Origin: Carcharhinus amblyrhynchos
Taxonomy: Eukaryota
Direction: 5' to 3'
DNA length: 64,000 nt
Assembly (NCBI GenBank): GCA_965287045.1
Contig: OZ336882.1
Location: 23,188,001 to 23,252,000, forward strand
Of this stretch, positions 1,393 to 26,552 are shown in pieces (positions within the stretch are counted from its first letter, which is position 1; each line of letters opens with the position of its first letter). The notes beneath the pieces are model-generated. The model was not told the origin of the DNA. It saw only the letters and a list, made by a program, of their open reading frames with translations, and searched no databases. Made by a program: the position numbers and the translations under genes.

Positions 1393-1931
1393 TTCAAAAT
1401 GTCAACCATTTAAATAAAGTTTTTTGGTATCAGTTTACAATGACAACAAGAAATAGTCACATAGGGAGGGGAAGAGAATGGTGATGGGAGATAGAAGAAT
1501 GTTCAGCTGCAGTGATAAACATGTAATCACAAAGATGCATAAAGAATAGAGAAATACACTTGCAAAGTTATGAGATTTCCTTTATGTGACACCATCCATG
1601 CCTCCAAAGCTGTGCTGGGCTTTGGAAACATGTTGCAAGTTTGTGCATCCTGTTCTGTTTTGTTAGCTATTAAAGGTGCGCATTGGAAACAGAAAGAAAT
1701 AAAACCTGAGCAAAGAACCTCCAATTATTCTGAACCCCACCTCAAAAGGCAAAGAAGATACATTTTCCTTGTGATAGTAATAACATCAACTCATTGGTGA
1801 ATATAGACATAGACAGATCCTATCTCTGGCAGAGAGGACACACATTTGAGCAATAAACATTGTTCTAGAAACAAACATACATTCAAAAATTAAATATATT
1901 TATTTTTATTGTAAAAATAAATATAAAGTAC

Positions 1932-1955
1932 CTTTGATGAAAACATCCGAAGAAG
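1932..1955 (-). CDS. GABRG2: 24-nt alternatively spliced gamma-2L microexon (LLRMFSSK)
   Basis: Minus strand ttttgttttcttaaacaaaaag|CTTCTTCGGATGTTTTCATCAAAG|gtactt; 8 codons, phase 0/0, 7 of 8 residues identical to the mammalian LLRMFSFK insert, in the expected position after the M3 exon. Confidence 0.93.
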
Positions 1956-2804
1956 CTTTTTGTTTAAGAAAACAAAACAGAATAAAAATATTTAATGAAA
2001 GCTTAAAGGGACATATTATGAAGACAAGGCAAATAAAATCTGGAAATACAGTAGAAAGAAGTGCAGACAACTCAAAGAATTAACAAGTAGTAAGAAATTC
2101 ATTGTAGAACAGGTAACAAATGTTCCTGCTGAATAATCTGGCACATTCATGGATGGAATACATTGAGGGCATTTGGAATTGAACGCATGGTGTTGACAAC
2201 TTCATAAAATGCATCTTATTAGTTATACAGAGCATGAGTACATTTCCTTATTTTTTATTGCTGCTCATAAGTAATAAATGTGTAAAAGTTATTTTGAATG
2301 CATTAATTGAAAAGTATGATGGTATGATTAACACAATTATTTTGGTACAATGAACAGCCAACAGGTACATTGGTTAACTCTCATGTCAAAGATTGTAAAA
2401 ACTGGTTTGGGTCCAGTGAAAGGTTTGATAGAGATGTAAACATGAAACATGTGATGGCATCAAACTTTAACAACACATACTTTGCATTTCCTCATGGCAA
2501 TTCAAGGTTAGATCACTACAATGCCACAGAAAAGGATGAACAAATCATTTAATTAAATGACCATATTTCATAAAATGGGCTACATTTCCATTCTAAATGG
2601 AAAAAGAACAAGGGCTTATGAAGGTCAAAATGTGCCATATTTGCGCCCAAAGAAAATTTCTCTTCCAAACATATGCTATATTTCAGTATAGTGACCTTTT
2701 TTTTTCAAAAAATGTGCAGCATCACAATCTTTGACGGAGTCAGTGCTACAGCAAGAAGCTATGACAAAGCTTTTGAAGATGTGCTTCCATGCCTTATACC
2801 TATT

Positions 2805-3256
<452 letters not shown>

Positions 3257-5905: not shown

Positions 5906-6935
5906 TGTGGCATTTTTAAAGGACAAGCCTGCAGACCATAAAGGTACAAACAAACTAACAAGAGCTTTATTGGAAAGGTGTTTACTTTACAGGCTGTTAG
6001 AATAGACTGCCCATTTGCCCGAATAAACAGCCAATGATGTCATCAGGACGTGATATGGTTGGTCCTTAAGTTGGTTCCTAGTTGTTCCATCTAGGAACAA
6101 CTAAAATACATAACACTTTCCTCCCCCTTCATATCAAACGTTCCTGAGACGAAACACCGTATAACATTAACAATGAAAATTCTCAGTATGAATAATTAAT
6201 AAACACAACAGTCAATAGTTTCGATGTTTCGGAGGACTGATTTCTGGGTGGTTGGTCATGAACCTTGGGTGTCTGCTTTTGTTGACTGCAGCCTCTTGTG
6301 TTTTTGGTTTAGTTTGGTTGTTTACACAGTCAGTGTTGAAGTACTGAGTTATTGTCTTTCCCAATTGTTTAGAGATTGTCCAGGTCTTCACTTGGCACAG
6401 CGTGTTGTGGACTCTAGACTGATTCTGTCTCTGCCAAACTGCTTGGTTGCCAAAATCGGGTCCACATGTCTTCTCTATATTACATTGTCTCAGGTTTGTG
6501 TGGTGTAGGAGACTGGTCCTGACAATGGTACATATCCACTTCTCACTGGTAATCTAGTTCCTCGCTAATCCTTCTTGACTTTATATAAAAAAATGCTTAG
6601 TCCTGCTCTCACATCATAATGGCACTAGTGGCAGCAGTTTCTGAACTTTTGCACAAGGTGAACACGTACTCAATTTCAGTATTGGTCAATGATCCATTAA
6701 TAGAGTAAATTTCCTTCCATTAACGTATTGGTAAAAATGTTTGATTCCAAAACTGATTCCTAGAGCTTCTTTCTCTATCTGTGCATTGTTCATTTGTGCT
6801 TTGTTCAAGGATCTTGATGCAAAGCTTCTCTTCACCATTGGGCATTTTGTGAGAAACCACCACCTCCACTCCATAAGGTGATGCGTCACATGCCAATTAC
6901 AAAGGTAAGTTTGGATCAAAGTGTGCCTGGACATC
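5906..6935 (-). mobile_element. Ty3/gypsy 3' remnant: RNase H fragment, polypurine tract and ~210-bp 3' LTR
   Basis: ORF 6686-6934 contains [45 protein letters not shown] (gypsy RNase H). On the minus strand the PPT aagggggaggaaag is followed directly by TGTTA at 6115; the LTR contains AATAAA and plausibly ends ...gccaCA at 5906. Confidence 0.8.
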
Positions 6936-7362
6936 TCAAACTAGTATAGAGGAGGATATAAACTAATTTGGCCAATATATAAGCACCAGGATGAAATGTT
7001 TTCAAGGAGAAAATGGTACGCATGGGACTAGGAAACATGAATGGCAAATGGAGTAGGAAGGATTAGAAAGCAGATAGATGTGAGCAGTCCAATATGGGTT
7101 TGGACTGCATAAGTGCATGCAGCATGATAAATCAGGCTGGTAAGCGTCGATACAATTCATAATCTCGGATCATGAAATAGAGGAAAAATAGAAGGGGAGG
7201 ACTGACAGCTTAATATTCTTGACTGCAGAGTATTCAGGAAATTTTAAAGAACAAATAGAGGGGGCAGCAGTATTTATCAAATAAATCATTTCAGCATTGG
7301 AAAGTGATGATGTGGTTAAGGAGTGAAAGAAGCTATTTGAGTATTGTTGAAAACAGAGACAT

Positions 7363-13463: not shown

Positions 13464-13700
<237 letters not shown>

Positions 13701-26324: not shown

Positions 26325-26552
26325 AGTTAATTTATTTGTGTCACCTAACCAGCACGTGCTGGTTAGGTACATTGTGTCAATGTACCTAACCAGCACGTCT
26401 TTCGCATTTGGGAGGAAACTGCAGCACCCAGAGGAAATCCATGCCAACATGGGTAGAAAGTGCAGACTCTGCACAGTGAGCCAAGCCGGGAATCAAACCC
26501 AGGTCCCTGCGGCTGTGAGGCAGCAGCGCTAACCGCTGCGCCACCATGCCGC
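26325..26552 (-). mobile_element. HE1/V-SINE, internally rearranged, inside an L2-like 3' end
   Basis: SINE head at 26552; local inverted copy acctaaccagcacgtgctggttaggt at 26343-26368. Confidence 0.75.

Follow-up and report, generated by a model that had tools for sequence, protein, structure and literature searches.

A gamma-2L microexon in the gabrg2 gene of Carcharhinus amblyrhynchos, shared with other cartilaginous fishes and likely inherited from the jawed-vertebrate ancestor

The window analyzed here is a stretch of 64,000 nt from Carcharhinus amblyrhynchos (G000:C13:23188001-23252000; contig OZ336882.1). It carries, on the minus strand, part of gabrg2, the gene of the gamma-2 subunit, whose last exon lies outside the window. 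The gene features are as follows, in the order of transcription.

13493..13645, minus strand: preceding gabrg2 exon, 153 nt, M1-M2 region, ...VPARTSL
3014..3219, minus strand: upstream constitutive exon (M3 exon), 206 nt, end of M2, M3 and start of the M3-M4 loop, PF02932
1956..1966, minus strand: A-rich 3' splice site taaacaaaaag, which interrupts the pyrimidine tract
1932..1955, minus strand: gamma-2L cassette microexon (equivalent of gabrg2 exon 9), 24 nt, phase 0/0, LLRMFSSK
1926..1931, minus strand: 5' splice site GTACTT (AAG/GTACTT), 6 of 9 U1 consensus positions
G000:C13:23168320-23168048, outside the window: last gabrg2 exon, 91 residues, APTVDIRP...YLYL, starting in phase 0

The M3 exon encodes a peptide that ends in ...KKKKNR, and its 3' end on the minus strand is ...AAGAATCGA/GTATGT at 3014. 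An intron of 1,058 nt (3013-1956), with the 3' end CTTAAACAAAAAG, separates it from the microexon. The letters of the microexon (1955-1932, minus strand) are CTTCTTCGGATGTTTTCATCAAAG, with the donor GTACTT directly after them, and the whole acceptor-exon-donor string reads cttaaacaaaaag/CTTCTTCGGATGTTTTCATCAAAG/gtactt. The exon has AG/GT borders, is in phase 0 at both ends, and its sixth residue is the equivalent of S343. From there an intron of 21,611 nt leads to the last exon. Coordinates and translation thus bear out a preliminary description of this DNA, which had proposed a 24-nt phase-0 AG/GT exon 1058 nt past the M3 exon, with an A-rich run directly before the AG (taaacaaaaag, 1956..1966). 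In the gap of 22,693 nt that separates the M3 exon from the last one there are 63 open AG-24nt-GT candidates. LLRMFSSK agrees with the mammalian insert in 7 of 8 residues, the runner-up among the 63 in 2 of 8, and under a base-composition model about 1e-6 matches this good are expected by chance in the gap.

The host gene of the microexon is gamma-2 and not another gamma paralogue, three of which are found elsewhere in the genome (C1, C4 and C10). The best named matches of the last exon are gamma-2 proteins of sharks, chimaera and rays (92-100%), followed by those of bony vertebrates. Its identity reaches 100% with the gamma-2 records of Carcharodon, Mustelus and Cetorhinus, and among PDB entries it matches gamma-2 chains best. 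A tree of 27 selected proteins groups gamma-2 from sharks to mammals in a single clade (88/99), separate from gamma-1 and gamma-3/4, while two hagfish proteins are unplaced. The C13 gamma copy also adjoins two alpha-like M3 exons and one beta-like M3 exon, a grouping similar to the mammalian cluster, whose order is gamma2-alpha1-alpha6-beta2.

The microexon is orthologous to exon 9 of mammalian gamma-2L. The two share the gene, the intron position, the length of 24 nt, the phase 0 and seven of the eight residues, R-x-x-S included; residue 7 is F in mammals and S in the shark, where the downstream intron measures 21.6 kb. The arginine codon is CGG in the shark, as it is in human judging from the variants R379W and R379Q (PMC6116786). 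Mammalian gamma-2L adds LLRMFSFK with S343, a site for PKC and CaMKII; the long form becomes more abundant as neurons mature and helps clustering at synapses, and its deletion in the mouse is mild (PMC6116786). Inclusion of mouse exon 9 climbs from P4 to P30, with Nova, Rbfox and Mbnl as activators, Ptbp2 as a repressor, and an Mbnl site located 4 nt past that of Rbfox (10.1101/247601; journal version PMC5989265). The dependence of the gamma-2L exon on Mbnl2 was confirmed in PMC9557336, and in the available text of PMC7821500 the gamma-2 microexon is mentioned for mouse only. As in mammals, optional splicing of the shark exon likely yields two gamma-2 subunits, one long and one short. Its inclusion would add eight residues with R-x-x-S, and so the S343-equivalent, to the M3-M4 cytoplasmic loop, and phosphorylation of this serine by PKC or CaMKII, as its sequence context suggests, could tune synaptic clustering and trafficking. 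Given the suboptimal, A-rich acceptor and the GTACTT donor, inclusion is likely to be biased towards neurons and maturation, as in the mouse.

Public protein records extend the exon well beyond this genome. We compared the loops of gamma-2 records in six protein clusters, in which long/short pairs are annotation models. LLRMFSSK occurs in at least 18 of the 22 chondrichthyan species listed, and both the long and the short form in at least 12 of the 22, among them a holocephalan (the elephant shark), sharks and batoids. Among the records listed, three of the remaining species have the short form only and one a truncated model only, an absence that means little. Presence of the segment in other sharks and rays, on which the preliminary description had let its reading depend, is thus found, and its proposal that the exon with its long/short pairs is older than the split of cartilaginous and bony fishes holds as well, since the identical peptide runs across chondrichthyans, elephant shark included. 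Its suggestion that automated annotation may have missed the exon does not hold: it is already part of the RefSeq/UniRef models of Callorhinchus, Carcharodon, Scyliorhinus, Chiloscyllium and Mustelus, and of skates and rays. Examples are the long and short models of Callorhinchus (XP_007907959.1 and XP_007907961.1) and of Scyliorhinus canicula (XP_038651926.1 and XP_038651928.1), and the long form of Carcharodon (XP_041050523.1). The insert of the three annotated long isoforms (XP_007907959.1, XP_041050523.1 and XP_038651926.1) is identical to that of our sequence, with no peptide difference.

The shark gamma-2L exon is therefore already known from public protein records, and these date it to the jawed-vertebrate ancestor at least. 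In the literature we found no paper stating gamma-2L in cartilaginous fish. The tables of Irimia 2014 and of Torres-Mendez 2019, both of which are said to have used elephant shark, may list the exon, as may VastDB and bioRxiv supplements. The text available of PMC2014790, PMC7973766, 10.64898/2026.09.05.749416 and the supplements of PMC12626420 and PMC12626424 returned nothing on fish gamma-2L when looked up by term; 'gabrg2' was likewise not found in the searched supplements of two zebrafish microexon papers. Taken as a whole, the reading we prefer is that of a gamma-2L orthologue, likely ancestral to jawed vertebrates and likely spliced into long and short forms, with a predicted phosphosite role in the loop and LLRMFSSK as the likely ancestral peptide. 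We give it a probability of about 0.93.

The direction of change at residue 7 follows from a survey of inserts, in which 164 of 239 proteins had a parsable loop. LLRMFSSK was found in 28 of these loops (23 chondrichthyan, 4 coelacanth and 1 lungfish), LLRLFSSK in nine, all of ray-finned fish, and LLRMFSFK in 19, from amniotes and the axolotl. LLWMFSFK, in which the arginine is lost, occurs in three frogs (Discoglossus, Gastrophryne and Bufo), and LLRMFAFK, in which the S343-equivalent is lost, in one newt record (P0189, P0190, P0209 and P0182 for frogs and newt together). A further 89 parsed loops have no insert, and 15 have longer or unrelated ones. Coelacanth and lungfish thus have the shark peptide itself, while ray-finned fish share its SSK ending and S343-equivalent and differ by M>L at residue 4. 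The FK ending occurs only in tetrapods (amniotes, axolotl, newts and frogs). Since chondrichthyans share S with ray-finned fish, coelacanth and lungfish, and only tetrapods have F, the parsimonious reading would be that S is ancestral at residue 7 and that a single S>F change took place on the tetrapod stem. It follows that the shark gained no serine. The preliminary description had seen an F>S change that adds a second phosphoserine, and this has to be reversed: SSK is the ancestral ending and FK the tetrapod one. LLRMFSSK is likely to be the ancestral peptide, with M>L in ray-finned fish, S7>F in tetrapods and further changes in frogs and newts as likely later events.

With R at -4 and K at +1, the second serine fits the kinase consensus R-x-x-S and S-x-K less well. 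The kinase site is not universally kept either, because the frog and newt inserts break R-x-x-S. An S343-type phosphosite, as predicted from the motif, is thus not indispensable: three frogs do without the arginine, and newts without the S343-equivalent. These amphibian losses suggest that the insert is retained for more than phosphorylation of S343.

The A-rich run before the AG of the shark exon interrupts the pyrimidine tract; further upstream, at -100 to -15, pyrimidines make up 71%. The mammalian gamma-2L acceptor is reportedly A-rich as well (Zhang, Ashiya, Sherman and Grabowski 1996). By count of U1 consensus matches, the donor of the microexon equals that of the M3 exon (6/9). A motif scan found UCUY motifs upstream at -140, -123, -104, -69 and -14. 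It found no UGCAUG within 500 nt of the microexon donor, the first lying at +869. YGCY does not cluster next to the RBFOX-like motifs described below, and the surroundings of the last exon show no NOVA-like cluster, with three YCAY in the last 200 nt before it. A triple TGCATG at about +17,770 was set aside, as by eye it resembles part of an interspersed repeat. The mammalian cis-elements are thus not obviously kept in the shark. SRRM3/4-dependent neural microexons are marked by a UGC signature upstream. The shark exon, likewise shorter than 27 nt, frame-preserving and conserved, was not assigned to this class, as no UGC lies within 70 nt upstream of the AG (the nearest is at -76).

Unlike mammalian exon 9, the shark exon has neither a nearby UGCAUG nor an adjacent MBNL cluster, and has instead an A/U hairpin and secondary RBFOX motifs just past the donor.

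1895..1925, minus strand: perfect 14-bp A/T hairpin (folding prediction), arms 1925-1912 and 1908-1895, +7 to +37 of the downstream intron
1872..1884, minus strand: overlapping secondary RBFOX motifs GAAUG, GUAUG and GUUUG at +48, +52 and +56, candidate low-affinity element

Folding predicts an extension of the stem in which 1937-1930 (the exon end and the GT) pairs with about 1890-1883 (+42 to +49), so that the 3' arm of the extended stem touches the three overlapping motifs. A tentative idea is that the 5' splice site is masked by the hairpin with its extension, and that RBFOX, binding GAAUG/GUAUG/GUUUG by the base of the stem, opens it in mature neurons. In its favour, pairing of AAG/GU at the donor is predicted at 0.79-0.99 in all four folding contexts, the fold of the 161-nt region has z = -3.46 (1 of 200 shuffles as good), and the hairpin is one of only three non-microsatellite perfect hairpins of at least 12 bp in 171.8 kb. 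The motif cluster is the sole 13-nt stretch (+48 to +60) with three secondary RBFOX motifs in the 21.6-kb intron; 0.8% of windows reach the four such motifs of its first 100 nt, but 12% the count of its first 250 nt. GAAUG, GUAUG and GUUUG are among the four secondary RBFOX motifs retained as in-vivo supported in 10.1101/840272. However, the experiments described there used six spaced copies of the motif, not three overlapping ones (10.1101/840272). The folding windows were picked after the hairpin had been spotted, and out of 500 shuffles of the 76-nt window, 5 reach an equally good fold. The stem consists of A/U pairs alone and sits inside sequence of 14% GC, where local inverted duplications easily arise. 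The relatives compared are about 97-99.6% identical, with 1885-1927 outside the comparison.

This gate would refine our main reading of an ancestral gamma-2L exon, not replace it, and we consider it doubtful. It may imply, with no better odds, that the shark switch works by another cis-mechanism than the mammalian one, a stem-loop masking the donor and RBFOX releasing it, and that the mammalian UGCAUG/MBNL/NOVA arrangement and the tetrapod S>F came later, refining a switch of jawed-vertebrate age. If true, a conserved neural exon would have kept its switch while its cis-regulation was rewired. Speculative as it is, the gate would be the only new lead here.

Somewhat less probable still is that the exon is real but constitutive, or without neuron-specific regulation, in this shark, and that regulated switching during development was added in tetrapods or mammals. 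It would agree with the canonical RBFOX, MBNL and NOVA elements not being evident near the shark exon, and with the 6 of 18 long-form species that have no plain short form among the records listed. Against this, both forms are present in at least 12 species of holocephalans, sharks and batoids, which implies skipping, and missing short forms mean little, the record listings being partial. The flanks of the exon also look constrained in a related genome (X8), where one contig spans 1650-2790. Twenty substitutions and three indels are listed, none of them between 1752 and 2066, and none of the 23 listed differences lies within 100 nt of the exon (binomial p about 0.016; 0.17 for a 50-nt flank and 0.043 for 150 nt), statistics that leave out 1885-1927 and two further differences counted but unplaced. 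The comparison lends modest support to constraint on the flanks. Another genome (X7) is nearly identical to the window and uninformative.

A different question is whether the exon has a deeper origin, shared with an exon of gamma-3. The gamma-3 gene of this genome carries, in the corresponding intron, a 135-nt phase-0 exon of the M3-M4 loop that looks optional (G000:C10:93024394-93024528, L021; LPDATLSCRVK...SQE). That the two descend from one exon that existed before the vertebrate genome duplications, which would make the optional slot older than jawed vertebrates, is an improbable proposal, for which the equivalent intron and phase 0 speak, together with their borders: both start AG/CTT and end AG/GTACTT, and these are the only AG/GTACTT sites in the four gamma introns. 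However, the two peptides show no resemblance, 2.7% of random 15-mers that follow an AG align as well as the first 15 nt do, and alignment of the flanks does not exceed that of shuffled sequence. No such candidate was found in gamma-1 or gamma-4, the insert is absent from the three of four hagfish records that have a complete loop, and rays and lizards independently gained other exons in the same intron. Independent gain of the gamma-2L and gamma-3 exons is more likely. A loop-restricted protein search gave no cyclostome among 57 matches, and no lamprey gamma record was seen, while hagfish gamma records turned up.

Models of Chiloscyllium and Rhinoraja include the 135-nt exon of gamma-3, which most of the other shark models compared lack. 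The Myxine glutinosa gamma-2-like isoform X3 (P0515) leaves the M3 exon into an ending LLSK..., with a stop after 12 residues. Hemitrygon akajei and Mobula hypostoma (P0006, P0152, P0157 and P0159) have an extra insert of 9 or 13 residues, D/EIGKSTAPK (+VGSN), right after the microexon, suggesting a putative lineage-specific second exon with two donors. A different insert, ECLV..., of about 17 residues, occurs at the same intron in the lizards Pogona, Tiliqua and Varanus (P0230, P0231, P0235 and P0237), both in records that contain the microexon and in records that lack it. Candidate counterparts of both in the shark intron were rejected, the best scoring BLOSUM 17 of 46 for the ray exon and 14 of 94 for the lizard exon, each without a GT.

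Contig runs guessed to be RNA are no evidence either way, because their filter may remove conserved exons: X1 and X2 gave only intron pieces at about 2297-2696 and a repeat, X3 gave almost only repeat, and X4, X5 and X6 gave nothing. A degenerate pattern of the microexon had no matches in metagenome contigs. A chance intronic look-alike or a dead, unspliced exon, with which the lack of an RNA junction here would agree, is very improbable against the 7/8 residue match (about 1e-6 by chance), the expected intron position, the intact AG/GT borders and phase, and the same peptide in at least 18 chondrichthyan species.

Other elements were noted in the same region. The contigs of X1 and X2, from a related organism, that cover 2297-2696 are possibly unspliced gabrg2 RNA or DNA carry-over. 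The intron upstream of the microexon holds, at 2832-2925, a high-copy short repeat with 34-nt inverted arms that are 91% complementary; it is very abundant in the guessed-RNA runs. Two broken remnants of LTR retrotransposons lie in gabrg2 introns on the minus strand: one at 6686-6940 with a piece of RT RNase H (PF17917, E 9e-11), and one at 2-650 recognized by eye, with a gag-like frame without a Pfam match. The longest perfect inverted repeat in the 171.8 kb, at about 26350-26400 (+), has 21-bp arms and a 3-nt loop and probably belongs to a repeat element.
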